A stretch of 64,000 nucleotides of DNA from a phage. The position numbers and the translations under genes are program-made. This document shows, piece by piece, positions 5,971 to 52,911 of the stretch; position 1 is the stretch's first letter; each line of letters opens with the position of its first letter. The stretch is from NCBI GenBank assembly GCA_020619395.1, contig GCA_020619395.1_4860.1. The stretch is one strand, 5' to 3'. The notes under the pieces are model-generated. The model saw nothing but the letters and a program-made list of their open reading frames with translations, did not search any database and was not told the origin of the DNA.

Positions 5971-6010
5971 AGTGAAGAAAAAAAGAGGGGCCGAAGCCCC
6001 ATCTTTTTTA
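5971..6010 (-). terminator. intrinsic terminator (A-run, GGGGC-CGAA-GCCCC hairpin, T-run; could act in both directions)
   Basis: hairpin 5987-6000 flanked by A-tract and T-tract, just downstream of the gene ending at 6008. Confidence 0.55.
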
Positions 6011-6589
6011 ACACGTCGCGCCAAGTTCCGAACAGGGATCACCATCTTCCCAGTCGAAAGCTGACATGCGTGCCCAGTTAAGTTGAATATCCACTTTATC
6101 GATTCGACTCAGTCGTACTGCACGATCTTCATTGGTAGCCCATTGCCAAATCTTATCTTCGTCGTACTTCGTCGAAATGCCCGATGTTGCTTCGCGGAAG
6201 TGGTCATCGGTACGCATATACGCATTGCCTTTGAACACATCCAACCGCGAAAAGCCGTTCTCATAACCAGTCGCCATACCGTCATTATACAACTTACGAT
6301 ATTCCGGCATGGCAACGAGGAATGGCTGTAAAGCAGCATTGGCGAACTGGAATTCACCCAACTCTTCGATCTGTCTTACCATCTCTACCGCATCGCTATA
6401 ACGTAATTTACGTGCGGTACTGAATGTTTCACGGAAACGCTCCAGTGAGATTAAGTCCTGACAATGTTCTTTTACACGGTCAACGAGATCGGGTGCCAGG
6501 CTAGACAGCGAAAACGATTCTTTGAATACGCTGAGTGCCCCGCTACCTTCGGTCTGTTTCGTCCACACCGTGCTACCTTGTAGCCACAT
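6008..6589 (-). CDS. hypothetical protein (193 aa)
   Basis: ORF followed by a terminator hairpin. Confidence 0.6.
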   Translation of the reverse strand: MWLQGSTVWTKQTEGSGALSVFKESFSLSSLAPDLVDRVKEHCQDLISLERFRETFSTARKLRYSDAVEMVRQIEELGEFQFANAALQPFLVAMPEYRKLYNDGMATGYENGFSRLDVFKGNAYMRTDDHFREATSGISTKYDEDKIWQWATNEDRAVRLSRIDKVDIQLNWARMSAFDWEDGDPCSELGATC

Positions 6590-6602: not shown

Positions 6603-8198
6603 TTAGCCCATCACCGCTTCCAACGGAATGCCTTCTTCATCATCCTCATCTGCTTCAATAAGGAACTGGTTCTGCATACTGATTAGCTCGTTATGTAAAA
6701 CCATGCCGTGTTCTACGCGGTCCACATCAGTAGAAGACATAAAGCCGTTATCTGGACGGAATTGGAGTGCCAACTTCATCTCAGTTTCATCGACTGGCAA
6801 ACGTACCTGGAACTGGTCGCCATCGAAATCTCCATTTGCCATCTTGATCACACGGTCAGAGATACGCAGCGAACACTGGTTAACATCGGTAACAACTTCA
6901 TCGATGTACAGCGTTTGAATAGACAACTGTACCAGCGTTGGGTTACGTAACGGTATGACCATGATCCCAAGACCGCCTGGGGATTCACGAATCAGTTCTT
7001 TAAAGATTTCATCTACAAGCGGGTCATACTGCATTGCCGCTTTCGCAACGATACGTTCACACTGCCGTGACGAATAACCGCGTCGTAGCAGTTTGTTCTC
7101 GATGTGGGTCGACATCAACCCAACCATCCAACGCCATGGTGCTTTTAACTTCCAGGCATCATGTGGTTCTGAGATAGGTGAGATGGTTGCACGACCACCG
7201 AACGGGATATGGGTAGAACCCAATTTCGCACGATAGTCACCCGGTTTACCTTCCATAGACTCACGACGGAAGTCCATGTGGAAGTACGTTAACTGACGGT
7301 TCGCCTTCAAAGCGCGACTAATCAGAAAACGTGGTTCGATCGCTTTACGCCGCGTATAGAGCAACGCGATATTTTTCACCGCATCAATAGCACCCGTGAA
7401 CACTGGGTCTACCATGACACCACGACGACCTTCCTCAGTAACGATAAGTTTAGAGGAGATTAGCGGTAAGTGTCTTGGGAAGAATGCGTGACGTTGCGTT
7501 TCGAATAGCTCCTTCCATTGTAAACGTAAGCGTTCACCTTCAGCGGCGTTATGCCGATTAGGTGCGAAGATTTCCTTCCAGGCTTCTGGCGTGGTAAGGA
7601 TGTTAAAGATACTAACGTGGTTATCAACCAGATTGCGCAAGCCACGAACGAAACCGTGTTCTTCCAATACACGTTTCACAGCATGTGCGCGTTTACCGTC
7701 TGGTTCTTCTATACGGTAATACGGGTCAATCATCCACATCATCAAGTCATTACCGCGTTCGATAGTGACCTTGTTACGTTCAAACTTCTTCAACTTGCTA
7801 TTAAAGAAAGCATTGAACATTGCCCAGAATCGTGGGTTGACGAAGTTACCCATTTCATCAGGTGCACGTAACCAGACATCGGATTCAATTCGATGTTCAG
7901 TTACAACATAGCCACACGTCGGACACTTACAACCGAGATTGTAACGATGCGCGATCGGTGCCGGACAATCCAAACTACAAATCGGTGCAGAGTTCAGTTC
8001 TTCGTCAACGATTCTGTTCTGTACCATGCGATCGATAAGTTCAGCAACTTCGATCGCATCCCCGTTAACGGCGACATCGTTAATAATAGTGGGTGGTTTA
8101 ATACCTTTGGCTGCAGCTTCTATTTGCAAATCGGACAAATAGTTATCCTGACTAACCAACCGGCCGGATATTCCGTAGAATTTTGGTACCTTTCTCAC
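6603..8198 (-). CDS. multisubunit RNA polymerase beta-prime N-terminal-like subunit (probable non-virion RNAP)
   Basis: Cys4 cluster CSLDCPAPIAHRYNLGCKCPTCG near the N-terminus; RNPTLVQLSIQ...MANGDFDGDQFQVRLP matches the bacterial beta-prime RQPTLHRLGIQ...NADFDGDQMAVHVP catalytic segment; GTG start with GAGG upstream. Confidence 0.7.
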   Translation of the reverse strand: MRKVPKFYGISGRLVSQDNYLSDLQIEAAAKGIKPPTIINDVAVNGDAIEVAELIDRMVQNRIVDEELNSAPICSLDCPAPIAHRYNLGCKCPTCGYVVTEHRIESDVWLRAPDEMGNFVNPRFWAMFNAFFNSKLKKFERNKVTIERGNDLMMWMIDPYYRIEEPDGKRAHAVKRVLEEHGFVRGLRNLVDNHVSIFNILTTPEAWKEIFAPNRHNAAEGERLRLQWKELFETQRHAFFPRHLPLISSKLIVTEEGRRGVMVDPVFTGAIDAVKNIALLYTRRKAIEPRFLISRALKANRQLTYFHMDFRRESMEGKPGDYRAKLGSTHIPFGGRATISPISEPHDAWKLKAPWRWMVGLMSTHIENKLLRRGYSSRQCERIVAKAAMQYDPLVDEIFKELIRESPGGLGIMVIPLRNPTLVQLSIQTLYIDEVVTDVNQCSLRISDRVIKMANGDFDGDQFQVRLPVDETEMKLALQFRPDNGFMSSTDVDRVEHGMVLHNELISMQNQFLIEADEDDEEGIPLEAVMG

Positions 8199-8280: not shown

Positions 8281-10134
8281 TTACAGTTTGAAGTTGCTCA
8301 GAGACACGCCCAGACCGAAATCGGAACCGCTTGCAGACAGGCCGTTGCCAGACAGCGTGAAGTCTTCCCCACCGTTGTTGAAGAACAGAGAGGTCGCCAT
8401 CGTGTTGTAGGCATTTACACCAGTCATAGACCAGGTGCAGTTGTTACGGACGAAGTCCAGCAGGCATTTACCGAAGATCGGGTTGATAGCCATATCCAGA
8501 GATTCACCGGTAGCTTGCGGTGCTTTGGATGCGAACAGAGAAGCGGCCAGTTTCAGCATGTAGATACGCTGTTGACGCTCGTTCAGTTCACGGTGGCTGT
8601 AGGACTGTGCGTTCAGGTAGCTATAGACGTCGTTCGCGTTATCACCCAGTTTGGTAACAACGGAAATCAGGTCCATATCCTGGAAGCTACGTTTCTGTGC
8701 AGTACCGGTGTAAACACCGGAAACAGTCGGTACGGCTGCTTTCACGATGTGGCTGCAATGGATGGTACCATTGAAGGCATCGCCCAGCTGTGCTTTCAGT
8801 GCAGAAGCAAATACTGCAGTGAAGCTGGTCGCTGCAACAACTTCGCCGTTCTGATCACGCGGGGACATGGAATTCAGAATAGCGAGCAGCTGTTTCAGAG
8901 AGTTGTCGTAACCGACCGCAATTTCAGACAGCATAGTAGACAGACCACCCAGACCGTTACCGGCACGATGGCTAACTACCAGTGCTGCTTCACGCGGTGC
9001 GAACATATCCAGGCAACCTTCGATAGCTTCACGGCTACCGTCGATTTTGGATACATCAGGACGAGCGTCAGCACCCCAGGACAGGTATTCTGCCACACGG
9101 GAGAACTTGCGATCTTGTTTGTTCAGACGTTTCACAAACAGGTCACGCCAGCCACCGATTGCCGCGATTTCTGCAAATGCAGCCAGCAGCAGCAGTTGAC
9201 GTTCATACGGTGCCATTGCACCTTCAGTTTGAGAATCGACCAGACTTACTACGATTTCAGCCTGCAGCTGTTTCAGGTCGTAGACGCCGTTAACGACAGG
9301 CTTCTGACCGGTGAAACGCATGTTGACGAAACCAGTACCGGATACACGCGGATACACCTGTACCTGATTGGTGTCCAGCAGAGTCGGAGTGGCGTCGGAT
9401 ACGTTGCTTGGGCTGTGCTCAACGGTGATTGCGAAATCAGCACGTTGTGCGTGGCCGTTAGCATCCACAACCGCACCATCTTCCAGCGGCATTACTGCAG
9501 CCTGATAACGGTCATGCTTACGCAGGTTCAGCGTACCCAGGTAGCCTGCGATACGACCGAAGATGCCCATCATCATCTGACCCATCAGAGTACGTGCCCA
9601 CTCAGCATCCAGAACTTTACCCAGGTCTGGTACGGAGTTGATGATCATGAAGTTCGCATTGGTCAGACCATGCGCTTCCATGATGTTTTTCTGTACTACT
9701 GCCAGCACGTCTTTGTTGAACAGTTCAGTGATGGTGTAGTAGTCTTCCTGGCCGTTGTTGGTAGTTTCTTTCAGACGCAGAGACTGACCGCGTTCAAAGA
9801 AGATAATACCGTACAGCCAGTGGCCCTGCCATTGGCCTGCGACATACGCCGCGGAACCCATTTCGTTACCCACGCCGGCGATGGTGCCCCAGCGGAACGC
9901 GTTGAGGTATTCGTTGCTTTTCTTCAGCTCGTCCAGGAGGTTGACGAAGTGCATTGCATAGGTGCTGATGTTGCGGATGCCAAATGCGTTATCGAATTGG
10001 CTGACAGTAGAAGTACCCGGCACAGCAGTTTGCACTTTTACAGTCTCGTTGCCCAGACCGCCCAGTGGTGCGGTGTCTTGAGTCTGAGTGTTGTTCTGCT
10101 GAGCGTTGTTGTTAGAGTCAACGATTTTTACCAT
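8281..10134 (-). CDS. abundant early or structural protein (617 aa); candidate phage-nucleus shell protein (chimallin), alternatively a capsid protein
   Basis: stand-alone unit with its own promoter-like motif, conserved leader TTAAGGAATATTTAAA-ATG and terminator; adjacent to the beta-prime-like gene as in the phiKZ gp54/gp55 arrangement recalled from memory; no sequence motif confirmed. Confidence 0.35.
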   Translation of the reverse strand: MVKIVDSNNNAQQNNTQTQDTAPLGGLGNETVKVQTAVPGTSTVSQFDNAFGIRNISTYAMHFVNLLDELKKSNEYLNAFRWGTIAGVGNEMGSAAYVAGQWQGHWLYGIIFFERGQSLRLKETTNNGQEDYYTITELFNKDVLAVVQKNIMEAHGLTNANFMIINSVPDLGKVLDAEWARTLMGQMMMGIFGRIAGYLGTLNLRKHDRYQAAVMPLEDGAVVDANGHAQRADFAITVEHSPSNVSDATPTLLDTNQVQVYPRVSGTGFVNMRFTGQKPVVNGVYDLKQLQAEIVVSLVDSQTEGAMAPYERQLLLLAAFAEIAAIGGWRDLFVKRLNKQDRKFSRVAEYLSWGADARPDVSKIDGSREAIEGCLDMFAPREAALVVSHRAGNGLGGLSTMLSEIAVGYDNSLKQLLAILNSMSPRDQNGEVVAATSFTAVFASALKAQLGDAFNGTIHCSHIVKAAVPTVSGVYTGTAQKRSFQDMDLISVVTKLGDNANDVYSYLNAQSYSHRELNERQQRIYMLKLAASLFASKAPQATGESLDMAINPIFGKCLLDFVRNNCTWSMTGVNAYNTMATSLFFNNGGEDFTLSGNGLSASGSDFGLGVSLSNFKL

Positions 10135-10340: not shown

Positions 10341-11408
10341 ATGTTCAGCCAAGCCGAGTTAAACCAAGTGGCCATAAAGGGTCACAGCACGGACCCCTCC
10401 GCTATAACATTAGCGGCTCACGTAAAAAACAACAGCCAGCGTATACGCAACTACTACGAACAGCTTAATCGCAGTGCTGGTAATGGCCATTTGTTGCAAC
10501 AGGTGTTGTCTGCCATCGGCTATGCCGGTGAACCAGAGTACGAAGACATCGAATGGGCTTGCCGTCGCAAGCTTGTTCAGATTGGTAACGCCTTACGCTT
10601 GACGTCTGTTGGTGAGTACGGTCAAATCTTTAATAGCAAGTTTATCCAGGGCCAAGATGAGGTAATCTCTCTCGTAGCCCGCCCAGTAAATCCAGACCTT
10701 TCGTTCCGCGACTACACCCCCGCCCGTTACCTCTACCATGAGTATACCAACCTCAATTGGAAGTTCGGTGACGGACGGCCCCGAGGTGTTACGGTGATCG
10801 AAATCAACCTGGTTGCTTTGCTTTGGCAATATGTCAAAGGTCAGCAACACTACAGTCGCGGTACCGAACCTATTGCCACACCTGTGTATCTCCAACGACA
10901 TGTGATCTCTCGCATGTTGCCGAGCTACATGGATATCGCCTTTGTAAATATACATCGTGCGATAGCCTTCGGGAAAGAGATTGAACCGGATGAAACATTA
11001 CGTGTCATTCCTGTTCCACCGCTTCAAGCTTTAGCTGTGAAGCACGCAAAAGGCATCCGTAGTAAACTACTGGCTGCCAACCCGTTACCGGGACAAGTCT
11101 TAAACAACATCCCATTGTTCTTCCAACACCCTGATGAAGAAGGCCACACAGCACTGGAACTGATTGTCTTTCGAGAACCAGGTCAAACACTGCAGAACAC
11201 CTGGCACCAGAACATGGTGAACTGGTACTGGGCACTGTTTTGTCTTCAATACAACCAGGGGAATATGGAAAAGCATAAACGTACGATGTTGGTTGATTTG
11301 GCGCGTTATGTGGACTCTAAAGTCCTCACACGTCTGACCAAATCCTTCTATAACTTTATCCAACGGGATTTGATTATCCCGTTGACGACAGAGCTAGAAG
11401 AAAAATAA
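10341..11408 (+). CDS. hypothetical protein (about 355 aa)
   Basis: ATG at 10341 preceded by AAGGAG; the listed ORF begins at an upstream GTG; followed by a UUCG-loop terminator. Confidence 0.6.
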   Translation: MFSQAELNQVAIKGHSTDPSAITLAAHVKNNSQRIRNYYEQLNRSAGNGHLLQQVLSAIGYAGEPEYEDIEWACRRKLVQIGNALRLTSVGEYGQIFNSKFIQGQDEVISLVARPVNPDLSFRDYTPARYLYHEYTNLNWKFGDGRPRGVTVIEINLVALLWQYVKGQQHYSRGTEPIATPVYLQRHVISRMLPSYMDIAFVNIHRAIAFGKEIEPDETLRVIPVPPLQALAVKHAKGIRSKLLAANPLPGQVLNNIPLFFQHPDEEGHTALELIVFREPGQTLQNTWHQNMVNWYWALFCLQYNQGNMEKHKRTMLVDLARYVDSKVLTRLTKSFYNFIQRDLIIPLTTELEEK

Positions 11409-11506: not shown

Positions 11507-11707
11507 CTAGTATTTTATCGTCTCCGTGAAGTCACTTGCGTATGGTTTACCCCACACAGTGATACTACGTTTCCGTTTGGCATCCAATGCCGTGATATGC
11601 ACCGTTTCGCCTGCCTGATGTAACTCAATATCCACGCAACCCCGTTCTTCGAGGTCGCGACGGATTGCGGTTATCATCTCTGTGGACTTCCCACTATTTC
11701 GATACAT
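11507..11707 (-). CDS. small hypothetical protein (66 aa)
   Basis: short ORF only. Confidence 0.3.
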   Translation of the reverse strand: MYRNSGKSTEMITAIRRDLEERGCVDIELHQAGETVHITALDAKRKRSITVWGKPYASDFTETIKY

Positions 11708-14043: not shown

Positions 14044-14092
14044 GTCTGGCCCCTTGGTTTTTTACTCAGCTATAAGACTTGCGGGATACGTG

Positions 14093-14128
14093 AAAAAAGA
14101 AAAAAAATAACCCACTCCGAAGAGTGGG
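14093..14128 (-). terminator. intrinsic terminator (CCCACTC-CGAA-GAGTGGG on plus, UUCG loop on minus, then T-run)
   Basis: hairpin 14111-14128 with adjacent A-tract, downstream of the gene ending at 14135. Confidence 0.55.
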
Positions 14129-14134
14129 CTTACT

Positions 14135-14545
14135 TTAACCGGCAATACTCTCAACGATTTCAAAATCGACGTCATTGAAACCATTGGCAGCCAGGGCACG
14201 TTTAAGGTCGTCAATCTCCTGTTTGTTATCCAGGGTGACGGTGAAGCGCACCTTCGTGTTTTCGATAATCTGAACATCACGAATCCAGGCATCGGCAGCG
14301 ACTTTTGGTTTGCCGTCAACACCTTTGAAAATCAGATACGTGTATTTGTTCACATTATCTTCTGGCTGGGAAACAATGGAAGAGTAGATATTCTTCTGCT
14401 CCGCCATCACATCCATATAACTTTTGGCCATCTCGTAGCCAACGCCGGTTGCCAGAATAATTACACGCGTCTCTTGCCCTTTCAAAGGGGTGTCGTAAAC
14501 AATGTTAACTTTTTGCCCAGCGACCAGTGTGCGTAAATCGAACAT
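14135..14545 (-). CDS. hypothetical protein (136 aa)
   Basis: ORF in a tightly packed minus-strand block. Confidence 0.55.
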   Translation of the reverse strand: MFDLRTLVAGQKVNIVYDTPLKGQETRVIILATGVGYEMAKSYMDVMAEQKNIYSSIVSQPEDNVNKYTYLIFKGVDGKPKVAADAWIRDVQIIENTKVRFTVTLDNKQEIDDLKRALAANGFNDVDFEIVESIAG

Positions 14546-18316: not shown

Positions 18317-19129
18317 ATGAATGTTATCGACTACTGTCTGCGTAAAATCAGACAGCATATTCCTGCCCCGATTCTACAGGCGGCTTTTGTTCCAGAAAAC
18401 CTCAAGTTACTGGGAATTGCAAGCTCTGTAGATAACGAAATCCAACAACGTGTTATTCGTGAGATTCTGGTCCCTGAAATCTCCAGAATGGGGCAGTATC
18501 AAGAAGTAGATTTGCAAGGTGTCCCTTGGGATAACGACACGCAAGATTATTTCAGTCGCGTGTATTATCTCGACGACATCAAAACAGGCGGTCGTCCTAT
18601 TCTGGATGCCCACATTTCTGTAACACCCGTTGCCGGACAGGCGTACACCATGCCTCCCGCAGGTTCATATCTGGACGGTGCCACCTCTGGCGTATTAGCA
18701 TCCACCCAGCAAGTGGTTGATAGTCAGTCGGCGATGCCACGTATCGCCTCACCAGAGGTCGAGGTACTCGGCCCGAATACCATCCGTATCAAAGACCCAG
18801 GCATGTTCGTTTACTCTACCAAACTCGTGGTGAAGTACGAACTATCCCAGGAGATGAACGAAATCAAACCAGCATTCTATCCGGTTGTAGGTGAGCTGGC
18901 AGTCATGGCTGTTAAGCAATATATTTACAACACCATGATCTTCGACATGGATTCCGGTAAACTGGAAAATGGTATGGAGTTCGGTGCCTTCAGAAACGTT
19001 ATTGAAGGTTACTCGGACGCGGGTCAAATGTTCGAAGACACCTTACCGAAAATGCAACGTTGTCTGGTCCACAACGACAACATCGGAAACCGTTGGAACT
19101 ACATGAACGGTGGACGCTTCAAGTCGTAA
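18317..19129 (+). CDS. hypothetical protein (about 270 aa)
   Basis: ATG at 18317 preceded by AGGAG; the listed ORF extends upstream across the promoter region. Confidence 0.55.
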   Translation: MNVIDYCLRKIRQHIPAPILQAAFVPENLKLLGIASSVDNEIQQRVIREILVPEISRMGQYQEVDLQGVPWDNDTQDYFSRVYYLDDIKTGGRPILDAHISVTPVAGQAYTMPPAGSYLDGATSGVLASTQQVVDSQSAMPRIASPEVEVLGPNTIRIKDPGMFVYSTKLVVKYELSQEMNEIKPAFYPVVGELAVMAVKQYIYNTMIFDMDSGKLENGMEFGAFRNVIEGYSDAGQMFEDTLPKMQRCLVHNDNIGNRWNYMNGGRFKS

Positions 19130-19183
19130 CAAAAAAAGAAAGATTCCGTACCTCTACGCGAGTAGAGGTACTTCTTCTTTTTT
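19130..19183. terminator. bidirectional intrinsic terminator (A-run, GTACCTCTAC-GCGA-GTAGAGGTAC, T-run)
   Basis: perfect 10-bp stem with GNRA loop between convergent genes ending at 19129 (+) and 19182 (-). Confidence 0.7.
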
Positions 19184-19571
19184 AACCGGCAACACCCAAC
19201 ACATCCTTAAGATGGTGGGTAATGCCTGACGTCCACGCCTCACCTTCACGCACGATTTCTGGTTGAGCGTTAACCAGTCGGCGGAGAGAAATTGTGTGTT
19301 CCGCTAAACCCGCTACTGGGAACACAGGCGGAACGGTGGCTTGTTTAACATAATCGACGACATCATCAAAGCCTTCGTTAGAAGACCAATCGATTTCTAC
19401 GCCGTCGCAGACATCTAATTGACGCGTGTTGTTCTCTTCATCGGGGTGGAAAGTAAAACCCCATTGAATAGTATCCAGGAGACCACGGTCAAGTTCGTTG
19501 ACCACTTTAATTTTCTTGAGGGTATCCGGATGCGCCATAATCACGTCCAGCGGACGCAGTTTGTTTTTCAT
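19182..19571 (-). CDS. hypothetical protein (129 aa)
   Basis: ORF followed by the bidirectional terminator. Confidence 0.55.
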   Translation of the reverse strand: MKNKLRPLDVIMAHPDTLKKIKVVNELDRGLLDTIQWGFTFHPDEENNTRQLDVCDGVEIDWSSNEGFDDVVDYVKQATVPPVFPVAGLAEHTISLRRLVNAQPEIVREGEAWTSGITHHLKDVLGVAG

Positions 19572-20055: not shown

Positions 20056-20090
20056 GGTAACTTCCTCCTATAAGATTCTGAGGCAGTCGT

Positions 20091-20128
20091 GAAAAAAGAA
20101 AAAAAAAAGAGGGAACCGAAGTTCCCTC
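20091..20128 (-). terminator. intrinsic terminator (GAGGGAAC-CGAA-GTTCCCTC on plus, UUCG loop on minus, then T-run)
   Basis: hairpin with an 18-nt A-tract on the plus strand, downstream of the gene ending at 20143. Confidence 0.6.
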
Positions 20129-20142: not shown

Positions 20143-21090
20143 CTAACCAAACTGATTTTCATACGCACGGAGCCATTGCTCATGCGGGAATAAATTATAG
20201 ACCTCTTCGGGAACGTGTAACATCAGCCACCTCACGCCAATACTGCTCGCGTACCACGAAGCGTATGGATAGATTGAATCCTTCGGTGGTGCTAACGGTG
20301 ATGGTAACTGTTGAACATCGGTGACAGGGTTACCGATAACTTCACCGCCGGGTAGTACAGCCGCTAGCATCCAGGTCGTTGGGTAGTAATTACCGCTATC
20401 TGTTTTAGCCAGATAACGTAAGTCTAAGTTTTCTGGCTCGAGCTGTTTGCGTAACGTTAAGAACAGGCACAACTCAAACGGTGCGATGTTCAATCTGGTG
20501 TTCGGGAGACTGTGTCCTTTATACCAGTTTGCATAGCCTGCCTGGAGAGCGTGGATTGCCAGAATCGGTCTATCCACATCCACAGGTAACTGGAGCGGTG
20601 TAATGTTCAAATCAGCTACAGTTGGAAACATTACCGGTTCAGGATTGATAAGCTGGTTATACGCTTCCCGTAAACGATTCATCTTGATGCGCAATGCACC
20701 GTTCGTTAACATCAGCCTACGTCCGTGGTTTTCATCTGTAGCCCGTTCCGTAAAGAGTGCATCGCCGAAATGGCGAACGAATTCGATACTTAAGAACCTG
20801 GTGTGGTACGTAGGTGAGGTATACTCAATAAACTCGTTCTGTTGGAATCCGAAGTAGTGGAGCAATTCGCCGTTACCCCATTTGAACACAAATCGGAATT
20901 CGAAGTTCTTGTACTGTAGTGCATCTTTTACAGCACGTATCGCTTCCCAAGCGTCGAAATTCGTTCTGTATAACGAACCGAAAGGGAAGAATCTGCGAGG
21001 TAAGAAAGGTCGAATGCGGGTTGCTTCTGCGAGGCTGAAGCCATCCTGGTTTAATCCTTCAATAGCACTAGGATTACTTGGTCTGTACAT
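20143..21090 (-). CDS. hypothetical protein (315 aa)
   Basis: ORF with promoter-like motif upstream. Confidence 0.6.
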   Translation of the reverse strand: MYRPSNPSAIEGLNQDGFSLAEATRIRPFLPRRFFPFGSLYRTNFDAWEAIRAVKDALQYKNFEFRFVFKWGNGELLHYFGFQQNEFIEYTSPTYHTRFLSIEFVRHFGDALFTERATDENHGRRLMLTNGALRIKMNRLREAYNQLINPEPVMFPTVADLNITPLQLPVDVDRPILAIHALQAGYANWYKGHSLPNTRLNIAPFELCLFLTLRKQLEPENLDLRYLAKTDSGNYYPTTWMLAAVLPGGEVIGNPVTDVQQLPSPLAPPKDSIYPYASWYASSIGVRWLMLHVPEEVYNLFPHEQWLRAYENQFG

Positions 21091-21315: not shown

Positions 21316-22137
21316 TCAGCGAAGGACGTCGGTAGTCTTACCGTGAGAGTTAACCACGTAGACTTCGTCGCCTTTATAAAACAGTTCGTACAACGCACCG
21401 GTACTGATCTGGTTATCAGGATCGTATCCAGATTCTTCTTCGATGCACATTGCGCCAATCAGTTCATCGACTGACCGGTCGCCAGGGCGAGCGCCTTTTA
21501 AAACAGTAACAACAGACTCACCGTTAATCCACTGCGACTGCTCCTGGACACCAGTGAACTCGATAGATGGACCAGGCTCTAATTCGACTTGTTGCAGTTC
21601 TTCCTGAGTGTAGACAATGATCGCCATGTCGCTATCAGGAGATGGTTTGTACCAGCCTAATTTCTCTGGGGGAGTACCGAAACCAACGAGTTCGCCGCAG
21701 ATACTATCCATGGCTTCTGGTTCACATAAATTTGTCGCCAGTACCAAGATAGCATTGCCCTTATTATCTAGCACGTAGCTAATAAACTCGCGTGCGTTGC
21801 AGTTAAACACCTCGACCGTTTCCAAATCGGGGATAATAAGGTTGGGGAAAAGCTGCCGCAAATACGTGTGTGCATAAACCTGACTTTTATATAATCTGTG
21901 CGACCAGCTGCAGTAGTCAGACAAATGCATGGTGTTCGGATCAGGCACATCAGGGGCAACGCGTTTTAACCCCGGATTAAGGGCTAACTTTTCATCATCG
22001 ACAACAATGTCGAAGCGCTCGTTCTCGAGCATCTTTAACGCCTCGCGGAATACACGAGACTTACGGTCACCGATACGAACTTTTTCATGTTCGGTAATAA
22101 TGCGGTCACCATCAATTACACGTTTAACTGTAAACAT
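21316..22137 (-). CDS. hypothetical protein (273 aa)
   Basis: ORF with GGAAG upstream. Confidence 0.6.
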   Translation of the reverse strand: MFTVKRVIDGDRIITEHEKVRIGDRKSRVFREALKMLENERFDIVVDDEKLALNPGLKRVAPDVPDPNTMHLSDYCSWSHRLYKSQVYAHTYLRQLFPNLIIPDLETVEVFNCNAREFISYVLDNKGNAILVLATNLCEPEAMDSICGELVGFGTPPEKLGWYKPSPDSDMAIIVYTQEELQQVELEPGPSIEFTGVQEQSQWINGESVVTVLKGARPGDRSVDELIGAMCIEEESGYDPDNQISTGALYELFYKGDEVYVVNSHGKTTDVLR

Positions 22138-27016: not shown

Positions 27017-27526
27017 TTAACACTTGATGGTGTAGCCATCAAGGCCAAGGTGTACTGGTTTTATCCATAACCCTGGCTCCCCGAAAATATTCAGGTCGTA
27101 AGTTTGGTAATGCATGATCTTTGCAGGAACATGCACACCCATGCGTTGCAGAAATTCCCAGACGGCGACGTAGCGTTCACGAGTGATGAACATTAGCCCG
27201 GAGTCGAACCCGGAACCGATGTCTAGGAAATTACCAAGAGAACTGTCAAAACTTGACACCCCATCTTGAGTAAGTGCGACCAACCCTTTAGTTAAATCTC
27301 TGTGGTTGTCAATGAAGTTACAGAGATCTACGATGGTTATTTGACCGTAAATACGACGGAGGACGGCAGCAACAGCCAAAATCTCGCTGGTATTTCCGTA
27401 GTCACCTAAAGGGTTATGGTCCATCATCGCAGTAATTATGCTTGTGTCGCAGAGGTCGATTAACCGCTGGTCATGTACCACCAGGTTAAGACCTTGCCCC
27501 ACCTGCACGGTTGGCGCAGTAAACAT
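27017..27526 (-). CDS. hypothetical protein (about 169 aa; start at internal ATG)
   Basis: AAGGAG 7 nt upstream of the ATG at 27526. Confidence 0.55.
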   Translation of the reverse strand: MFTAPTVQVGQGLNLVVHDQRLIDLCDTSIITAMMDHNPLGDYGNTSEILAVAAVLRRIYGQITIVDLCNFIDNHRDLTKGLVALTQDGVSSFDSSLGNFLDIGSGFDSGLMFITRERYVAVWEFLQRMGVHVPAKIMHYQTYDLNIFGEPGLWIKPVHLGLDGYTIKC

Positions 27527-28742: not shown

Positions 28743-30119
28743 ATGTCTGAACTGGTTTATGATTTCAGTACCGGTTGTTATCGCGATACCGGAGTGAAGG
28801 TTGCCGTCGAATCATTCGGACGTGACCCATTCTTCGACGATGACACGTATTCTACGGGCTTGTATTACGACTATGGTTTTGGCGGCTACGTCCCGATGGG
28901 TTTGGTGGTTGCTGCAGAAGCCATGAAGAATGACCGATTACGTAAAGTGTTTGACGAATGTTTTAAACATGTCGTCATCGATCGTCGTTTTGCAAAGCAA
29001 ATTCAGCTTCACGTGGATAACATTCTTAAACGTGAAGGCAATGTGGAGTGGTTAGGGTCTAATCTATTAGGCGTCCACACCATTCGTTTCTACGATTCTG
29101 ACCGTAACCGCTTTTTTGAAGATGTCTTGAAAGTCGACGAAGACTATCTGTTCGAGATGATTAAAGAATCGGGCACGATTAACACCGACTGGGCAGTGGC
29201 GGGCGATCCGTATAACCTTTCCACGGTCTATACGCTACATCGGATGATGTCGAAGTTCGCCGATCGTGAAATTCATGCCGCGGCAGTGTCGTTGGTAACG
29301 TTGCTGCAATTCAAATTCTACTCCAGTATATATTACCACTTCTTCCCCAAGCCGGTCGACATGGCCGCCGCCGACGCCGCATACTCGATGTTGTCGTTAA
29401 AGTTCGATATCCGTCGTTTAGGCAACTGGGGCCTGCACATGCAGGAGCGTTCAGAATACTTCTGTTCTCCGGAGTACCCAAACTACGACGCGGTTAAACG
29501 TTTTGATACGCCAGACCTGGTATTGCGTTTTATCACCGACCTGAACACCCGTACCAAACAAACTGTGAAGGACTATTACGCGGTATTGGACAAAGTGCGT
29601 CGTGATAACAGTCGTGTAATTACGCAGTCAACCCGAATTGAGTTAGACGGTGAATCGATTATCCGTGACAAAGTGGGTGCGCTGGATATCGCTAAGCAGA
29701 ATTTGTTCGATGCGTCTTACGACATCAACAATCTCTACAAAGAGCAATTGGCAAAAGTGGTATTGGAGCTAGTACCCAAAGCATCTCCCGCGGCACTGAA
29801 AACTTTGCTGGCGTATATTGCAAGTCTACCGCTTGGCAAAAAGCGTGATGAGATTAACGCTATCATGGAGGACACGCTATCGCACGCGTTCGATGAGATT
29901 GTTACCTCTCGTCTGAACTTTAACGATGCGAGTACGGTTCTACTGCGTATGCGTTCGTTGTACCAGGCTTCGAAGTCCCCTAACCCATACGTGTTATCGT
30001 TGCGTGAACGGATTGAGAAACTGGCCGCACGGGAAACACACATCCGTCATGAAGCCGCTCTGGCTGCCTTACGTAATGCGTTACTGTTGTACTTCTTGAT
30101 CCGCTCTTTGCAGAAATGA
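28743..30119 (+). CDS. hypothetical protein (458 aa)
   Basis: AGAGG upstream; followed by a terminator hairpin. Confidence 0.6.
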   Translation: MSELVYDFSTGCYRDTGVKVAVESFGRDPFFDDDTYSTGLYYDYGFGGYVPMGLVVAAEAMKNDRLRKVFDECFKHVVIDRRFAKQIQLHVDNILKREGNVEWLGSNLLGVHTIRFYDSDRNRFFEDVLKVDEDYLFEMIKESGTINTDWAVAGDPYNLSTVYTLHRMMSKFADREIHAAAVSLVTLLQFKFYSSIYYHFFPKPVDMAAADAAYSMLSLKFDIRRLGNWGLHMQERSEYFCSPEYPNYDAVKRFDTPDLVLRFITDLNTRTKQTVKDYYAVLDKVRRDNSRVITQSTRIELDGESIIRDKVGALDIAKQNLFDASYDINNLYKEQLAKVVLELVPKASPAALKTLLAYIASLPLGKKRDEINAIMEDTLSHAFDEIVTSRLNFNDASTVLLRMRSLYQASKSPNPYVLSLRERIEKLAARETHIRHEAALAALRNALLLYFLIRSLQK

Positions 30120-30185: not shown

Positions 30186-30428
30186 TCAGGCGAGTGCTCC
30201 CGATACGGCAACTTGATGTAGGGTATACACAACGTGTAGCCCCGCGGTCGATAGTCCACCGATAAGCAATACGCCAAAGCTACAGATAATCTGACCGAGC
30301 CGCATTGTGCGTGTGCAGACATCGTGGCTTTGTGCGTGTATGCGTATTACTTCGATGGTGTGGCGTAAGCCAAAGTATAGGCAAATCCACATTACCAGCA
30401 CGATTGCGTAGTAGAGTTGAGTCATCAC
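30186..30428 (-). CDS. small membrane protein (80 aa, two hydrophobic helices); holin-like candidate
   Basis: hydrophobic segments YYAIVLVMWICLYFGL and ICSFGVLLIGGLSTAGLHVVY; 4-nt overlap with the terminase gene. Confidence 0.45.
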   Translation of the reverse strand: MMTQLYYAIVLVMWICLYFGLRHTIEVIRIHAQSHDVCTRTMRLGQIICSFGVLLIGGLSTAGLHVVYTLHQVAVSGALA

Positions 30429-39762: not shown

Positions 39763-40638
39763 ATGGCAATCAAAGATCGTCTCATTTTGCCTGATCAGGG
39801 TCTGCACGTCGACGGCGGCCAGTACGATATGGTCAACGCGTTCTCCTCGGGCCAAAACGGCCCGGTTGGACAGGTTGGCAAGTTCGTTACTAACGCCTCT
39901 CGTCTGCGTCGTAACGTCATTGCGCGTGTCATGGAATTCCCTCGTTGGGTGGATTACATGCCGAACCCGCAAATGTGGCGTCAGGCTATCAAGTCCTTTA
40001 TCGAGGTTCACTCCGAGATTACTGGTCTGGATAAAACCCTGAGCCATGCGGCAGTTGAAACTCAACAGGGCCGTAACAACCGCACCCAGTATGAAGCTGG
40101 TCTGGTAACGGAAGCACTGTCCTCTGTTACCTTCACCACCCCGGATAAACTCGGGAAGGTGTACCAGAACATGCTGTGGGCGTGGCTGGTTTACGGTGTT
40201 TGCGATCCCCAGACTGGTCACCCAGGCCTGGCCGCAATCAACCCGAACGTTCCTGACCACCTGCCGGATATGTACAGCATGACCGTGCTGTTCATCGAAC
40301 CGGATGCATATCAGCGTAAACCGCAGAATGCGTGGTGGTTAACGAACATGATTCCGGAAACCGCCGGCCAGGATATCGGTGAGCGTGAAACCAACACCGG
40401 TCCGCAGATTAACGAACTGTCAATCGCCTTTACCTCCCAGCAATGGACAGGTTGGGGTCCGATGCAGGCTGCTGCGAAAGAGCTGGAGCGTATGAAGCTG
40501 TACGGTCTGCGTCCTTACGAGCGCAAACTGTGGCTTACTCCGTCTCAGCAGACCGATGGTATCAACCCGGACGTCAACGCAACCCCAGGTGGCTACAACT
40601 CTGTCTCCGACGAGCAGATGGCCAACCAGATGCGCTAA
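39763..40638 (+). CDS. tail tube protein candidate (291 aa)
   Basis: follows the 681 aa gene after a 3-nt gap; bidirectional terminator directly downstream. Confidence 0.4.
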   Translation: MAIKDRLILPDQGLHVDGGQYDMVNAFSSGQNGPVGQVGKFVTNASRLRRNVIARVMEFPRWVDYMPNPQMWRQAIKSFIEVHSEITGLDKTLSHAAVETQQGRNNRTQYEAGLVTEALSSVTFTTPDKLGKVYQNMLWAWLVYGVCDPQTGHPGLAAINPNVPDHLPDMYSMTVLFIEPDAYQRKPQNAWWLTNMIPETAGQDIGERETNTGPQINELSIAFTSQQWTGWGPMQAAAKELERMKLYGLRPYERKLWLTPSQQTDGINPDVNATPGGYNSVSDEQMANQMR

Positions 40639-40640: not shown

Positions 40641-40696
40641 CAAAAAAAAACAAGCGTTACCTCTCTCCATTTGGAGAGAGGTACGTTTTATTTTTT
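40641..40696. terminator. bidirectional intrinsic terminator (A-run, TACCTCTCTCC...GGAGAGAGGTA, T-run)
   Basis: 11-bp stem between convergent genes. Confidence 0.7.
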
Positions 40697-41230
40697 CGGT
40701 TGGCCAGCATCAATTTCACGCTGCGCATTGGCACGAATCAGCAAGTTCTTGATTTGCAGCAATAACAGATAGGTTACGAGCACATCGAATTCAGACGGTG
40801 GTTGAACATCACCCAAGTCAGGGTGGGCAATCTTCCAGAGAGACATCCCGTCTTTATAACCTTGCCCTGATTCTGCCGCGAGAATGTCGTTGGCGGACAT
40901 GCTAATGAGTTCGTGTTCCAGCCGACGGAGTACATCGTCACCCAATTCTACCTGCAACAGACATTTAAAGCGAATGATAAAACCCGCGATAATACGACCG
41001 CTACTACCTTTGGTGATCGTGTCGAGAAAACGTTGGTAGCCGTTGATGGTGTGCGGGATGATTTCAACCGGATATTCGGCAATGGTTTCGAAAGCATCTT
41101 CCAGTATAGCTTTCATGGACAACGTAAACACGTCACCGATCTGATTGATGTGGCGAATAATGTCTTCACGTTTCATATCAGATGGAATCGGTTTGATATC
41201 ATCCTGACCGAGAGTATTAAGTTGCTTCAT
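40688..41230 (-). CDS. hypothetical protein (about 180 aa; start at internal ATG)
   Basis: GGAG 5 nt upstream of the ATG at 41230. Confidence 0.5.
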   Translation of the reverse strand: MKQLNTLGQDDIKPIPSDMKREDIIRHINQIGDVFTLSMKAILEDAFETIAEYPVEIIPHTINGYQRFLDTITKGSSGRIIAGFIIRFKCLLQVELGDDVLRRLEHELISMSANDILAAESGQGYKDGMSLWKIAHPDLGDVQPPSEFDVLVTYLLLLQIKNLLIRANAQREIDAGQPKK

Positions 41231-41285: not shown

Positions 41286-41489
41286 CTACTTCCGACCGTA
41301 TAGCGAAGCAAGCCCTTCTAACTGCAGCGGCTTCGGCATAGGTTTAGGGAAGGTGACGGTGAGACCGATTTCCTCGTGTGACGCAATGGTGCCATCCCAA
41401 CGTAACCCAGTAGCAGGATTCACATTAGGATGACATTCCACTTTAGCCCCGAGTAGCTCAGCGAGTTCCTTTGGGCTGGACGGAATCAT
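41286..41489 (-). CDS. small hypothetical protein (67 aa)
   Basis: short ORF abutting the upstream gene. Confidence 0.4.
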   Translation of the reverse strand: MIPSSPKELAELLGAKVECHPNVNPATGLRWDGTIASHEEIGLTVTFPKPMPKPLQLEGLASLYGRK

Positions 41490-48705: not shown

Positions 48706-51700
48706 TTAGTTGATTTTAGCCGGCAAGGCTGGGACGTCTTCACCATCTAAGATGCGTCCGATATTCTCCCCACCACGATACCCGACAGCGTTGGTGGTTC
48801 CGATGCGCATGATAGAACCTACGATACGTGCGTCGACGGAATCACGACCAAAGATAATGTCGAGTTCCTGCCCGTCTTCCGTTTTGTTGGTTCCATACAT
48901 CACTTCCTGAACCGTCGTTTTCAGCTGGTTAGCAATAACCATCTTATCCGCTGCTGCCATCTCTACCCGGTGTGTGATGTAGAATCGGACACACAGGCTA
49001 TTGTACGCTAACGGCACCCCCTCAACACGAAAATCACCGTTGACTCGACCGTCCTTCGGCTCGTCACGTTTGAGAGCCAGCGCAGTCTTCCGACGTATAC
49101 GGTCGTATTTACGAACCATCTCCGCCAAAGACGGGGTCATATCTTCCACCTCGCCGTGGTAAACCACTTCGATTTTGTCGATAAACCCACGAACACCAGA
49201 GCGTGGTGCAAAGGAGCTTAACTCACGCAGCGTTTCCGCTGCTTCTTTACTGAACCCGCTCATATCGCCGGTCAGGTTGTCGGTGAAGGTGCATAGAATT
49301 GAATCCACGTCTACGTGGTCCCCTTCTTTTACCATCTCCAACAGGTTCTGGGTAAACGTCATTGTGACTTCTTTGAGTTTGGTAACATCGGCTTCAGCCT
49401 TAGCAGCGAACCGCTCACTAATGGCGTTGGAGTCCTCAATTACTTCTTCCCCTTCAATCAAAGCGACAGTTGCCAGTATCCCGTTTTTAAAACTGACCTG
49501 CGTTGGATCGTAGATGTCTGGTTCAAAGTGTTGTTCGTTGTACGTGATAACGGCACCGGCAGGGAGTTTATCTCCGCGCTTCCATTTCGTTACCAGGGTG
49601 TGTGGGTAGTAAGTCCCTTCGTGCGGACCGAACCAACGGCCCAGTGGGAAAGCTTCTTCCTCTCCGTCGTCGTATTTGATTTTAACGTGGTCGTTAAGAA
49701 CCTCCACAATCTTGCCAGGTTTATCGATTACGCGTGCGTGCTTCACAGAAGTACGGTGTGCCACGAACTTTTCTTGCTCGGTACGATACGGTGTGGTGGT
49801 TGCGCCAACACAACTGGTCGCAGAACCGAATTGAATCCCAACGAAGTTCTGACGCTTAGCATCGTCCATCAGGGTATCCGGCACCAAGCCATCAATAAAT
49901 GACAGTGCCTCACCTGGCTTCAGTTTATCGAGGTCCTTTTTAAAGGTCGTGCCGTCCACGGTGTCGTAACGCGGATTGTTTGTTGCAAAGGCGGTGATAC
50001 CTACATCGCCGTTATCGACCGTGTTACCGGAGACAATCCCCAGGTCGCTCGGTTGGAATTCACGGGTACTGTAGACCATGGTCTTGCGGTTACGACCACC
50101 TGTACCGCCCATGGTAACAACATCTTTTTCTTTGATGTTCTGTACCGGGTTTGCGCCAGGTGCCAGCAGAACAGACGGGTCGGAGTTAATTGCACCCCAC
50201 ACCATGTCCTGCGTCAACTCAAACTTACGATTCGAGTTAGGCGCGTTGTTGTAGTTACGCATCGCCCGCACCATCGCGGTGTAGATGTGATACGAAATAC
50301 GTTGGTTCCCGATGAACATCATTTCGTCACCGTTAATTTCCGGTAACGTGTGGTCCGTCTGCAGCAGTTCGTTAGAACGCTCCAGTAAGCCGATAAAGGT
50401 TTCCGGCTCGCCCATTTTCCTGAGGATACGCGCGTGCATGTCATCAACAAATGCGGTCCGCATCAGTTTCAGCTCTTTGATGTAGCGTGGTGTTAGCCCA
50501 TCTGCATCGCGTAACAGGTTCAGGTAAATGTCTTCCCGGTCAACTTCCGACTCGGTATACGTGGTAAAGTGTTTGATGTAACGGTCTAAGCCGTTGACAA
50601 TCATCCTCTGTTGATCGTTCTCGCAGACAATTGCAATCTTCGCATCCTGGAGACGAATAATGGAGTCGAACTGACCTTTATCGATACGTTGTCCGACAGA
50701 GAGAACCTCGTAACTGATACCAAAGTGTTTCAACATCCCGGTTAACCCGAGATAGTACGAAAACACAAAGCCCAGCGAGATTGATTTGCCCATCAGTGAC
50801 AGTTCGGTCATTTCTCGTGGAGCCTTAGAGGTGTCCACGCCAAAGACCTCGGCGAGTGTACCCAGTGGTTCGGTCTTATCCTTATCCACTCGATAAAGCT
50901 GGGAGTTTTTATCCATACCGACGATGACATGACTCCGCGGTTTCTTCGCCACAGGTACCAGCTCGACACGGTCCGCGTCTGCCAGTTGCCCTTCGTTAAA
51001 GAATGCCGCTTTCTGTTTAATGTCAAAGTTCCATTGGTACCCAATTGCGTTGAACGCTGCTACACGACGTGCCACCTCGGTGTACTGACGCGGCAGTTTA
51101 GACAGCGGATCGAACACATTCGCCAGTTTTGCATCAGTGATTTCGGTGTTCTTTGGATCGACCGCGCGAGTAATAATCGCGTTAGTGAGCCAACGTCCGT
51201 AATCATTGACGACTTTATCACTGCGACGGACAAAGTTCTTCCCGTAGGCAGTGGTTAACGCTACAGTATCGTGGGACACTTTACGGATAGGAAGATCAAC
51301 GCGCTGACGACGCATTGTATATTCTACACCATTCGCAACCCAAGTACCGTCTTCGGTTAATGCAGGAATTGAGAAACGTACCGTGGTTGGTTCTCCGCCA
51401 ATCGGCTGAATACGCAACGTGTGGTGTTCGATATTCCCGGTAACGGAAATCTCTTTCTCGACAGTGTGATTGTGAATCGCCAAACCGAGACGCTGAGATG
51501 ACGCCACTGCGCCCAGAACATCTTTCGGGAAGATTTCCTGGTTGTACTGACGAATGATTTGGTCGGTGGTATTTTCCGCCCAGGCTTCATCCGTAACTAA
51601 GCGTTCAATCTTCTTAGGCTCGGCTTTAACTTCGAGTTTCTTCGGATCGATGGTCAGACCTTCGCCGTACGTCTCTTTAGGATTGTACGGGTTGGGTAAG

Positions 51701-52911
51701 TTTACGAAACGTTTAGAAGATTCGTTCAGGAACTGATACGCTTTGGCGGTGACGCGGCCCGCTTCTGCCAGGCGCTCAACTTCCTGTTTAATCACAGCAT
51801 CGTGTGGGATGGTGCGTTCTACGACGATGGTGGTTGGTTTGACATCTTCTTTCGGCGCTTCGATGACCAGATCTTCTTTCTCATCGAACTCATGATCGTT
51901 CAATGTATCGTCAACGTTGTCGCTTTGTGTTGCTTCATCGTCGACGATATCGAGGCTTTCTTCCGGTTTACTGGCAACGGTTTCAACGGCATCGTCGTCC
52001 TCTCCCAGATGTACGCGTTCATCCCCTTCCGGTGTAACGAACTCGTCATCTTCGTAGTCGGTAGACGGCGGTGTGGTCATCACCGTAGTCAGTGTACGGT
52101 AGAACATTCTGCCCATCTGCACGTCAGTCAAACGACCACCGGCAGACTTACGCATTCTTTCAATTACACCCATGTTCATGGATGTAAAACCACCGTTGTG
52201 TGTGAAGATAAAGTTCACACGTGACAGCTGGTTCATGTCCATACCGTCAAACAGTGTTGCTTGCTGATCGCCGTACACCCAACCGAACAACTCCAGTAAC
52301 CACAGCAGGTTAAAGTCTTTAAAGCGCTCCAGTTTGGTTTTAACACGATCGTTATACGTCATTTTAAAACGATCGAAAGAAGGCAGTACGTTACCCAGTT
52401 CGATGATGTAGTAGTTCTGACGCATGTACTCACGTGAGTCAGTTTTCATCTGGTTAGTTATCAGCAGCTGAATGTTGTGCAGACGTTCGTACCAGGACAT
52501 CAGAGTATCAGGGTAAAAATAATGCGGCAGCATCGGGGTGTAGTTTTCGATGAGCAGCACTTTCGGATCGGAACGTACCACGCCGTCTTCAATCATGCGA
52601 CGAATACGACGATTGTTACGATGGTACTGGAAGATTTGACGTTCTTGGCCAACAACCGGTTTCTTACGCGGATGGCCAATAATGCCGTCTTCAGGCAGCT
52701 GGAAGTGGTGGCGAATCATCGCCGGTTTTTCCAGCTGGCCAAAACATGGTGTAGTTAACGGTGGCGCTAAAACCACCTGGTCTAAATCGATGGTGTGGTA
52801 GATAGAACCACGTGGGAGCTGGAGCTTCTCCAGCGGGATAATACGCGGACGACCGAACTCATCGGTCTTGCGCACGGTAAAGCGCTGGTTAAACTGTTTC
52901 AGAAAAATCAT
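48706..52911 (-). CDS. multisubunit RNA polymerase beta-like subunit (1401 aa), probable virion RNAP
   Basis: EDGTWVANGVEYTMRRQ resembles the conserved beta N-terminal DNGTFVINGTERVIVSQ; C-terminal EDGQELDIIFGRDSVDARIVGSIM resembles the beta [25 protein letters not shown] region; lies next to a beta-prime-like gene. Confidence 0.5.
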   Translation of the reverse strand: MIFLKQFNQRFTVRKTDEFGRPRIIPLEKLQLPRGSIYHTIDLDQVVLAPPLTTPCFGQLEKPAMIRHHFQLPEDGIIGHPRKKPVVGQERQIFQYHRNNRRIRRMIEDGVVRSDPKVLLIENYTPMLPHYFYPDTLMSWYERLHNIQLLITNQMKTDSREYMRQNYYIIELGNVLPSFDRFKMTYNDRVKTKLERFKDFNLLWLLELFGWVYGDQQATLFDGMDMNQLSRVNFIFTHNGGFTSMNMGVIERMRKSAGGRLTDVQMGRMFYRTLTTVMTTPPSTDYEDDEFVTPEGDERVHLGEDDDAVETVASKPEESLDIVDDEATQSDNVDDTLNDHEFDEKEDLVIEAPKEDVKPTTIVVERTIPHDAVIKQEVERLAEAGRVTAKAYQFLNESSKRFVNLPNPYNPKETYGEGLTIDPKKLEVKAEPKKIERLVTDEAWAENTTDQIIRQYNQEIFPKDVLGAVASSQRLGLAIHNHTVEKEISVTGNIEHHTLRIQPIGGEPTTVRFSIPALTEDGTWVANGVEYTMRRQRVDLPIRKVSHDTVALTTAYGKNFVRRSDKVVNDYGRWLTNAIITRAVDPKNTEITDAKLANVFDPLSKLPRQYTEVARRVAAFNAIGYQWNFDIKQKAAFFNEGQLADADRVELVPVAKKPRSHVIVGMDKNSQLYRVDKDKTEPLGTLAEVFGVDTSKAPREMTELSLMGKSISLGFVFSYYLGLTGMLKHFGISYEVLSVGQRIDKGQFDSIIRLQDAKIAIVCENDQQRMIVNGLDRYIKHFTTYTESEVDREDIYLNLLRDADGLTPRYIKELKLMRTAFVDDMHARILRKMGEPETFIGLLERSNELLQTDHTLPEINGDEMMFIGNQRISYHIYTAMVRAMRNYNNAPNSNRKFELTQDMVWGAINSDPSVLLAPGANPVQNIKEKDVVTMGGTGGRNRKTMVYSTREFQPSDLGIVSGNTVDNGDVGITAFATNNPRYDTVDGTTFKKDLDKLKPGEALSFIDGLVPDTLMDDAKRQNFVGIQFGSATSCVGATTTPYRTEQEKFVAHRTSVKHARVIDKPGKIVEVLNDHVKIKYDDGEEEAFPLGRWFGPHEGTYYPHTLVTKWKRGDKLPAGAVITYNEQHFEPDIYDPTQVSFKNGILATVALIEGEEVIEDSNAISERFAAKAEADVTKLKEVTMTFTQNLLEMVKEGDHVDVDSILCTFTDNLTGDMSGFSKEAAETLRELSSFAPRSGVRGFIDKIEVVYHGEVEDMTPSLAEMVRKYDRIRRKTALALKRDEPKDGRVNGDFRVEGVPLAYNSLCVRFYITHRVEMAAADKMVIANQLKTTVQEVMYGTNKTEDGQELDIIFGRDSVDARIVGSIMRIGTTNAVGYRGGENIGRILDGEDVPALPAKIN

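Follow-up and report, generated by a model that had tools for sequence, protein, structure and literature searches.

The intergenic hairpins of the window, meaning the whole 64,000-nucleotide stretch of DNA analyzed here, are probably factor-independent (intrinsic) transcription terminators of an SPN3US-like jumbo phage, a reading to which we assign a probability of about 85%. All sequence-level and comparative tests that were run (placement, T-runs, loop strand and conservation) supported this reading, which a first-pass annotation of the same DNA had proposed. From sequence we infer the ending of transcripts at the hairpins, the polymerase that would respond to them and their possible stabilizing role.

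The window belongs to the genus Seoulvirus, whose members are ~240-kb jumbo phages, and represents an SPN3US-like Salmonella phage with an overall identity of ~98% to SPLA1a, SPFM and SaP7. For a 20-kb slice of the window, full-length identities to the Salmonella phages SPLA1a, 1252, SPLA5c and several SPFM isolates were 98.2-98.7%; the same slice was about 95% identical to SaP7 and 67-81% identical to Erwinia jumbo phages. Based on a gene map transferred from the annotation of close relatives, nearly all genes are located on the - strand and are densely packed, with intergenic DNA summing to ~11% of the window. Three RNA-polymerase-subunit genes (6603..8198, 48706..52911 and 52930..54543) were all clear by PHROGs, and a Pfam search for RNA polymerase genes in the window returned a sub-threshold Rpb1 match only. 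DNA polymerase, the large terminase, the tail sheath and one tRNA-Trp are also encoded.

The primary hairpin, at 19148-19171, occupies the 52-nt gap that separates the stop codons of two convergent genes, 18317..19129 (+, phrog_3179) and 19182..19571 (-, phrog_7939). Its perfect 10-bp palindromic stem, GTACCTCTAC/GTAGAGGTAC, is available on both strands and encloses a 4-nt loop that reads GCGA (GNRA) in the + RNA and UCGC in the - RNA. It is flanked by an A-run and, on the opposite side, by a T-run, exactly as claimed. The T-run TTCTTCTTTTTT (19172-19183, with 8 T in the first 10 nt) would give the + strand transcript of gene 18317..19129 its U-tract and forms an A-rich 5' flank when read on the - RNA. 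The + strand A-run CAAAAAAAGAAAGATTCC (19130-19147) would be the U-tract for gene 19182..19571; on the - RNA it reads GGAAUCUUUCUUUUUUUG, and a 5-nt spacer separates the U-run from the stem, a less than optimal arrangement for a canonical terminator. The 54-nt region at 19130-19183 folded with -22.3 kcal/mol on the + strand and -21.3 kcal/mol on the - strand, corresponding to z = -5.8 and -5.1, respectively, relative to shuffles, of which 0/200 were equally stable.

The first-pass annotation had listed ten intergenic hairpins. All ten were present in the sequence, and the start coordinates it gave are the outer (far) ends of the T-runs. On the - strand, predicted terminators follow gene 6008..6589 (5975-6000; GGGGC-uucg-GCCCC and TCTTTTTTTCTT), gene 8281..10134 (8213-8251; GGACGGGGGC-uaac-GCCTCCGTCC and TTCCCTCTTTTTTTG), gene 14135..14545 (14093-14130; AGCCCACTC-uucg-GAGTGGGTT and a T-run), gene 20143..21090 (20091-20128; GAGGGAAC-uucg-GTTCCCTC and T10), gene 21316..22137 at a distance of ~90 nt (21182-21225; GTCCTCACTC-uucg-GAGTGAGGAC and AACTCTTTTATTTTTTTTTT), and gene 27017..27526 (26960-27009; GGCGTACTCTC-uucg-GGGAGTACGCC and AATCTTATTTTTTTTTATTTTTTT). 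The hairpins themselves lie at 5987-6000 (UUCG loop, with an A-run upstream too), at 8228-8251 (UAAC loop) and, each with a UUCG loop, at 14109-14130, 20109-20128, 21202-21225 and 26984-27009. An extra canonical member beyond that list, a predicted 12-pair hairpin with G.U followed by TTTTTTTGATTT (41241-41280, - strand; hairpin at 41253-41280), follows ORF 41286..41489. The description of the stems as perfect over 7-11 bp was slightly generous for 5987, which has a 5-bp G+C core and is longer when the A/U extension is counted, and for 8228, whose 10 bp include one G.U pair; the 26984 stem likewise contains one wobble pair (U.G).

Besides 19148, the listed hairpin starting at 40641 had been placed between convergent genes. 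Both placements were correct, and the total rises to four with 11461 and 30128. The predicted terminator at 11458-11501 (hairpin 11461-11484) lies between genes 10341..11408 (+) and 11507..11707 (-) and consists of AACTACACAC-uucg-GTGTGTAGTT followed by CTTTTTTTTATTTTTT on the + strand, with an A-run upstream. The hairpin at 30128-30155 (region 30113-30171, both strands; GCCACCTCTCC...GGAGAGGTGGC, loop AGUUUC / AAAC) lies between genes 28743..30119 (+) and 30186..30428 (-); its T-run is good on the - strand (ATTTTATTTC) and distal on the + strand. The hairpin at 40658-40683 (region 40641-40697, both strands; TACCTCTCTCC-auuu-GGAGAGAGGTA, loop AUUU / AAAU) separates a virion protein gene, 39763..40638 (+), from gene 40688..41230 (-), is bordered on either side by an A-run and a T-run, and gave z = -7.2 and -8.3 relative to shuffles. 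The combination of a palindrome, a 5' A-run and a 3' T-run was found at 19148, 40658 and 11461, and partly at 30128. It is plausible that several hairpins work in both directions; this applies to 19148 and 40658, for which two-way use had been suggested, and also to 11461 and 30128, which the earlier list had not recognized as such.

Bare-hairpin folding energies at the ten listed sites ranged from -9.6 to -22.9 kcal/mol, and all sites were intergenic, 4-90 nt past a stop codon. At least 5 T in the first 10 nt were counted at 5987, 8228, 11461, 14109, 19148 (+), 20109, 21202, 26984, 30128 (-), 40658 (+ and -) and 41253, with weaker U-tracts at 19148 (-), owing to the 5-nt spacer, and at 30128 (+), where the tract is distal. 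The loops, described earlier as UUCG or GNRA, are of these types in seven of the ten hairpins (six UUCG and one GNRA), and the other three are UAAC, AAAC/AGUUUC and AUUU/AAAU. A C(UUCG)G loop was identified at 5987, 11461, 14109, 20109, 21202, 26984, 32549 and 23687, and was not found at 19148 (GCGA), 8228 (UAAC), 30128 or 40658. An Rfam scan of the whole window at the gathering threshold gave three tRNA matches only, none of them at the hairpins.

Stem frequency and placement were compared with chance expectations. In a census of perfect stems with loops of 3-8 nt, 15 stems of at least 9 bp were observed, compared with 1.29 ± 1.06 expected from 100 dinucleotide-preserving shuffles, and 8 stems of at least 10 bp, compared with 0.31 expected from dinucleotide shuffles. 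By count, 11 of the 15 stems of at least 9 bp were located in the intergenic ~11% of the window. As a coding control, 600 random 150-nt sense-strand segments were searched for a hairpin of -12 kcal/mol or lower followed by at least 5 T in 10 nt, and none was found; 0.7% of segments passed when the threshold was set to -9.5 kcal/mol. When the best hairpin was scored in every intergenic gap of the window, all four convergent gaps held a hairpin of -13 to -23 kcal/mol, and none of the five divergent gaps held a strong hairpin with a T-run on the transcribed strand (4/4 versus 0/5 at -13 kcal/mol or lower, Fisher p = 1/126). About half of the tandem gaps of at least 40 nt had such a hairpin. This pattern, present in convergent and absent from divergent gaps, is expected of terminators and not of promoters, operators or random palindromes.

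The strand on which the loops are read points to a function in RNA rather than in DNA. The hexamer CTTCGG occurs 55 times in the window (26 on the + strand and 29 on the - strand), mostly in coding sequence and without a flanking stem. Eight of the 55 cap stems of at least 5 bp; all eight are intergenic, and each gives UUCG rather than CGAA when read in the sense of the gene whose end it directly follows. T-runs sit 3' on the same strand as the sense UUCG loop. Wobble pairs at 8228, 26984 and 14109 are found on the transcribed strand and would become A.C mismatches on the other one. In the four convergent-gap hairpins all core pairs are Watson-Crick, and both strands fold equally. These data bear on the alternative that the palindromes act in double-stranded DNA, as protein-binding sites, cruciforms, or recombination or replication signals. 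The two-way sites are perfect palindromes that would allow symmetric folding or binding, covariation in a palindrome cannot by itself separate DNA from RNA, and the phage encodes an SbcD-like nuclease subunit. However, the UUCG loops keep to the sense strand (8/8), the G.U pairs become mismatches on the other strand, the T-runs are asymmetric, and the stems differ between sites and genera with no common recognition sequence. The substrates of SbcCD-type nucleases are also far longer than the 20-28 bp stems found here. Because the features are strand-specific, a DNA-level palindrome function was rejected and is regarded as very improbable.

A dispersed REP- or MITE-like palindromic element spread through intergenic DNA could likewise generate many look-alike intergenic hairpins, and 14109 and 21202 have 14 nt in common (CACTC-ttcg-GAGTG). 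Yet the median longest common substring between hairpins was 5 nt, the stems were unrelated apart from their loops, and each site is positionally conserved across four genera, unlike the presence/absence pattern of a mobile element. With no shared sequence beyond the loop except in the 14109/21202 pair, a repeat family of this kind was rejected, its probability being close to nil.

To assess conservation of the predicted terminators, syntenic regions from 11 relatives in four genera were compared: SPLA1a, SaP7, pEa_SNUABM_29 and SPAsTU (Seoulvirus), phiEaH2 (Erskinevirus), Huxley, pSal-SNUABM-04, pEa_SNUABM_4, pEa_SNUABM_9 and Caitlin (Machinavirus), and pEa_SNUABM_11 (Wellingtonvirus). In the orthologous 3' gaps a hairpin, usually with a T-run, was found in nearly every relative with a locatable ortholog, where flanking proteins had diverged to 40-70% identity and the stems were often wholly different sequences. 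At the position of the 8228 site, Machinavirus phages have another stem, GGGGTGGGAGC, and the 40658 site is kept with altered stems in pEa29, phiEaH2 and pEa9. After gene 14135..14545, the UUCG loop was present in 12/12 genomes from the four genera on five stem cores (CCCACTC, TCTCCTCGC, CCCCTC, CCCCGC and TGCCTACCGC). At the 5987 site no comparable perfect-stem hairpin was found in Huxley, pSal04 or Caitlin. A separate difference was observed directly downstream of the 5987 terminator, where SPLA1a (L001 5536-5961) and SPAsTU (L003 5863-6288) carry an extra gene of 426 nt that is missing from the window (5926-6007) and from SaP7, indicating an indel at the terminator-gene junction.

For the primary site, the orthologous gaps were located from annotated gene coordinates. 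Across relatives its stem changes from GTACCTCTAC to GCCCCTACTC, AACCCCTGC and TACCCCCGC. In an alignment of 10 phages, 96% of cells paired, compared with 32-50% when the partners were slid, compensatory change was seen in 5 of the 10 pairs, and the covariation score was reached by 0/500 shuffles. Among close relatives the loop varies between GCGA, GUGA and GCAA, each of them GNRA on the + strand, and over all 12 genomes it was GNRA or UUCG in 8 on the + strand and in none on the - strand. The - strand T-run was present in 11/11 relatives. The + strand T-run is kept in Seoulvirus, Erskinevirus and Huxley/pSal04 and lost in the three Machinavirus relatives pEa4, pEa9 and Caitlin; hence, two-way function is not uniform. 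In the Wellingtonvirus phage pEa_SNUABM_11, an extra gene lies between the convergent pair, and two predicted terminators stand face to face; both are UUCG-capped and have a T-run on the strand that they would terminate. This arrangement backs two-way use of the shared hairpin and shows most clearly that a terminator seems to be required for each convergent gene, a need that elsewhere a single palindrome would serve for both.

Hairpins of comparable strength and conservation also occur without a U-run, at 32549-32572, 48683-48701, 61698-61719 and 46121-46146, with energies of -12 to -22 kcal/mol. The first (CCTCCACCCC-uucg-GGGGTGGAGG, - strand) lies 12 nt before the start codon of the terminase large subunit, and in phiEaH2 and pEa9 it keeps a UUCG or GAAA loop with compensatory stem changes. 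The hairpins at 32549, 48683 and 46121 each precede the start codon of the following gene by no more than ~25 nt, and 61698 is located directly past the stop of a 2373-aa gene, just upstream of a TCTTACAG motif. It is possible that the T-run-less hairpins are attenuators, stability elements or processing sites. Their existence means that a hairpin alone is no proof of termination and, because they are equally conserved, some members of the set may chiefly affect RNA stability or processing, or attenuate transcription.

The same hairpins are part of the case for an alternative in which all sites are barriers to processing or trimming: transcription would read through, the RNA would be cut or trimmed, and the hairpins would block 3'-to-5' exonucleases and set segment-specific mRNA half-lives without terminating transcription. 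Equally strong, conserved hairpins lacking a U-run before the next gene's ribosome-binding site (32549, 48683, 61698 and 46121) would suit such a role, the persistence of the C(UUCG)G loop from genus to genus while the stems change fits selection for stability, and the mapped 3' ends of phiKZ were only partly classed as intrinsic terminators (PMC10914365). However, the ten listed sites have U-runs on the transcribed strand that are conserved in relatives, and an exonuclease barrier needs none; moreover, a hairpin in every convergent and no divergent gap is expected if colliding or antisense transcription must stop. We therefore consider protection as the sole function unlikely, and the protective and terminating roles are not mutually exclusive.

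In the literature searched on SPN3US, phiEaH2 and related phages there was no map of terminators or transcripts, and the only maps found were for phiKZ, 201phi2-1 and AR9. In phiKZ, long-read ONT-cappable-seq mapped 133 terminators, with 6 bidirectional regions between convergent genes, and in 201phi2-1 there were 132 mapped terminators, of which 15 were bidirectional and 8 were validated in vivo (PMC10914365, PMC11512511). RNA-seq of AR9 showed strong termination at predicted terminators (PMC5312081). The termination properties of jumbo-phage RNA polymerases may differ from those of canonical enzymes (PMC7598289). UUCG and GNRA tetraloops nucleate hairpins that fold rapidly and are unusually stable (PMC3972237), and tetraloop hairpins are known in rho-independent terminators and T4 intercistronic regions (Tuerk 1988; d'Aubenton Carafa 1990; both as summarized in PMC3972237).

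The hairpins of the window resemble bacterial and phage rho-independent terminators in their G+C-rich stem of 5-12 bp, 4-nt loop and 3' U-run on the transcribed strand, in their position a few to ~90 nt past stops, and in the A-run and T-run flanks at convergent pairs; unlike in those terminators, some U-runs here are interrupted or offset by 5 nt from the stem. As with the C(UUCG)G hairpins of T4 and E. coli, the UUCG is closed by C-G, read on the RNA-sense strand and located at gene ends, with eight examples in the 64-kb window. In contrast to T4, the lineage here is an unrelated one, that of phiKZ-like jumbo phages; the loop is kept across four genera while stems turn over, and no description of this was found for the clade. 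By analogy with the known C(UUCG)G hairpins, it is reasonable that those described here would also stabilize transcript ends. Features in common with phiKZ and 201phi2-1, which belong to a related jumbo-phage group, are the two phage RNA polymerases, two-way regions between convergent genes, a pyrimidine-rich 5' arm, a purine-rich 3' arm and a 4-nt loop, and a frequent TTAT or TTTAT after the stem (here at 11461, 21202, 26984, 30128, 40658 and 2136). Unlike the A/U-rich loops of that group, the loops here are mostly UUCG, and the stems are individually different. The conserved terminator motif of phiKZ is BCCYCCCCHWWDGGGRRGGBYTTATKYYGT (Putzeys et al. 2024). A search with CCYCCCCHWWDGGGRRGGBYTTAT gave no matches in the window at up to 3 mismatches; hence, the hairpins are not members of that sequence family and the resemblance is architectural only.

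In the mechanism that we propose, RNA polymerase leaving a gene would transcribe the G+C-rich palindrome, the nascent RNA would fold fast in the exit channel into a hairpin that is often capped by the extra-stable C(UUCG)G tetraloop, and the weak rU:dA hybrid of the U-run would release the transcript. Between convergent genes, one perfect palindrome with an A-run and a T-run would serve both strands (19148, 11461, 30128 and 40658). The leftover hairpin at the 3' end would probably also slow 3'-to-5' exonucleases. Transcription of phiKZ is independent of the host polymerase. By analogy, the hairpins here, unlike ordinary rho-independent terminators, would probably be read by the phage's own split polymerases and not by the host enzyme; were this phage host-independent like phiKZ, its split beta/beta' RNA polymerases would be the enzymes being terminated.

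Features of this kind are ordinary, and what is new is their documentation in this clade and not the kind itself; the terminator reading is well supported and unsurprising; it amounts to good annotation, not discovery, and leaves current understanding unchanged. It provides a usable map, validated by comparison with relatives, of where transcription units would end within 64 kb of an SPN3US-like phage. If the phage is host-independent like phiKZ, then its divergent split beta/beta' polymerases would obey the cellular hairpin-plus-U-run rule. The compact two-way and UUCG-capped versions are possible terminator parts for Enterobacteria.

Two of the predicted terminators are followed by a recurrent cassette comprising the T-run, TTT(C/T)AC(G), a spacer of 11-13 nt and T(C)TTATAG, with a ribosome-binding site ~0-25 nt further on. 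Such promoter-like cassettes were located at 14130..14070 and 20128..20068, both on the - strand. At 14109 the T-run continues into TTTCACG-N11-TCTTATAG ahead of the gene for DNA polymerase, and this copy is kept in all four genera (L002-L012). It suggests that DNA polymerase starts at GTG 14043 and not at the annotated 13890. The strict form TCTTAYAG had 5 matches in the window, 4 of them intergenic. The cassette is a candidate phage-specific promoter. A scan of the window for sigma-70 promoters revealed no excess (24, 8 and 10 found, compared with 27.5, 23 and 19 expected), and the lack of an excess of host-type promoters is consistent with phage-specific ones. The T-runs at 14109 and 20109 partly overlap the conserved promoter-like motif, and the overlapping part may have been selected for the motif.

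The loop at 14109, found in 12/12 genomes and always in sense orientation, and the loop at 19148, GNRA or UUCG in 8 of 12 genomes on the + strand and in none on the - strand, also raise the idea that the C(UUCG)G cap is a specific signal beyond thermodynamic stability, a code for termination or 3'-end protection. We regard this idea as doubtful. The observations would fit such a code if it were matched to the sigma-less split RNA polymerases that the phage encodes, or else to an RNA-binding factor of phage origin; the U-run-less hairpins at 32549, 48683 and 61698 would then represent a second, polymerase-specific or processing class, and the cassettes of hairpin, T-run and TTTCACG-N11-12-TCTTATAG would be coupled terminator-promoter modules.

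Several minor observations were made elsewhere in the window. Two - strand genes flank a hairpin at 2136-2155 whose T-run, GTATTTTTTATTTTG, is on the + strand and whose A-run is on the - strand; the arrangement is the same in relatives. Upstream of it on the + strand are the inverted repeat TGAGATAatatcTATCTCA (2072-2090) and TCTTACAG (2095). This hairpin might terminate a short transcript from the + strand or an antisense one.

Adjacent tRNA-like Rfam matches were found on the - strand at 22518-22589 and 22592-22661 (30.6 and 40.9 bits), which were not called by ARAGORN and overlap a + strand ORF annotated in SPLA1a. The syntenic region of relatives contains several tRNA genes (Asn, Ile, Tyr and others), and the two matches may be degenerate tRNA genes. 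The region 25247-27016 comprises 1.8 kb without annotated genes and holds several hairpins, among them very A+T-rich palindromes at 26238-26255 (TATTTATttatATAAATA) and 26272-26291 (ATAATACCtaaaGGTATTAT). By our estimate, the SPN3US reference record starts at ~25.6 kb of the window, within this gene-free region, and other records that match at ~6 kb on the minus strand also begin at an estimated ~25.6 kb. Finally, in SaP7 (L008 6286-9114) the RNA polymerase subunit gene corresponding to window 6603-8198 is annotated as two pieces with an ORF, 6860-7726, inserted between them, which is possibly an intron or homing-endonuclease insertion; the window copy of the gene is uninterrupted.
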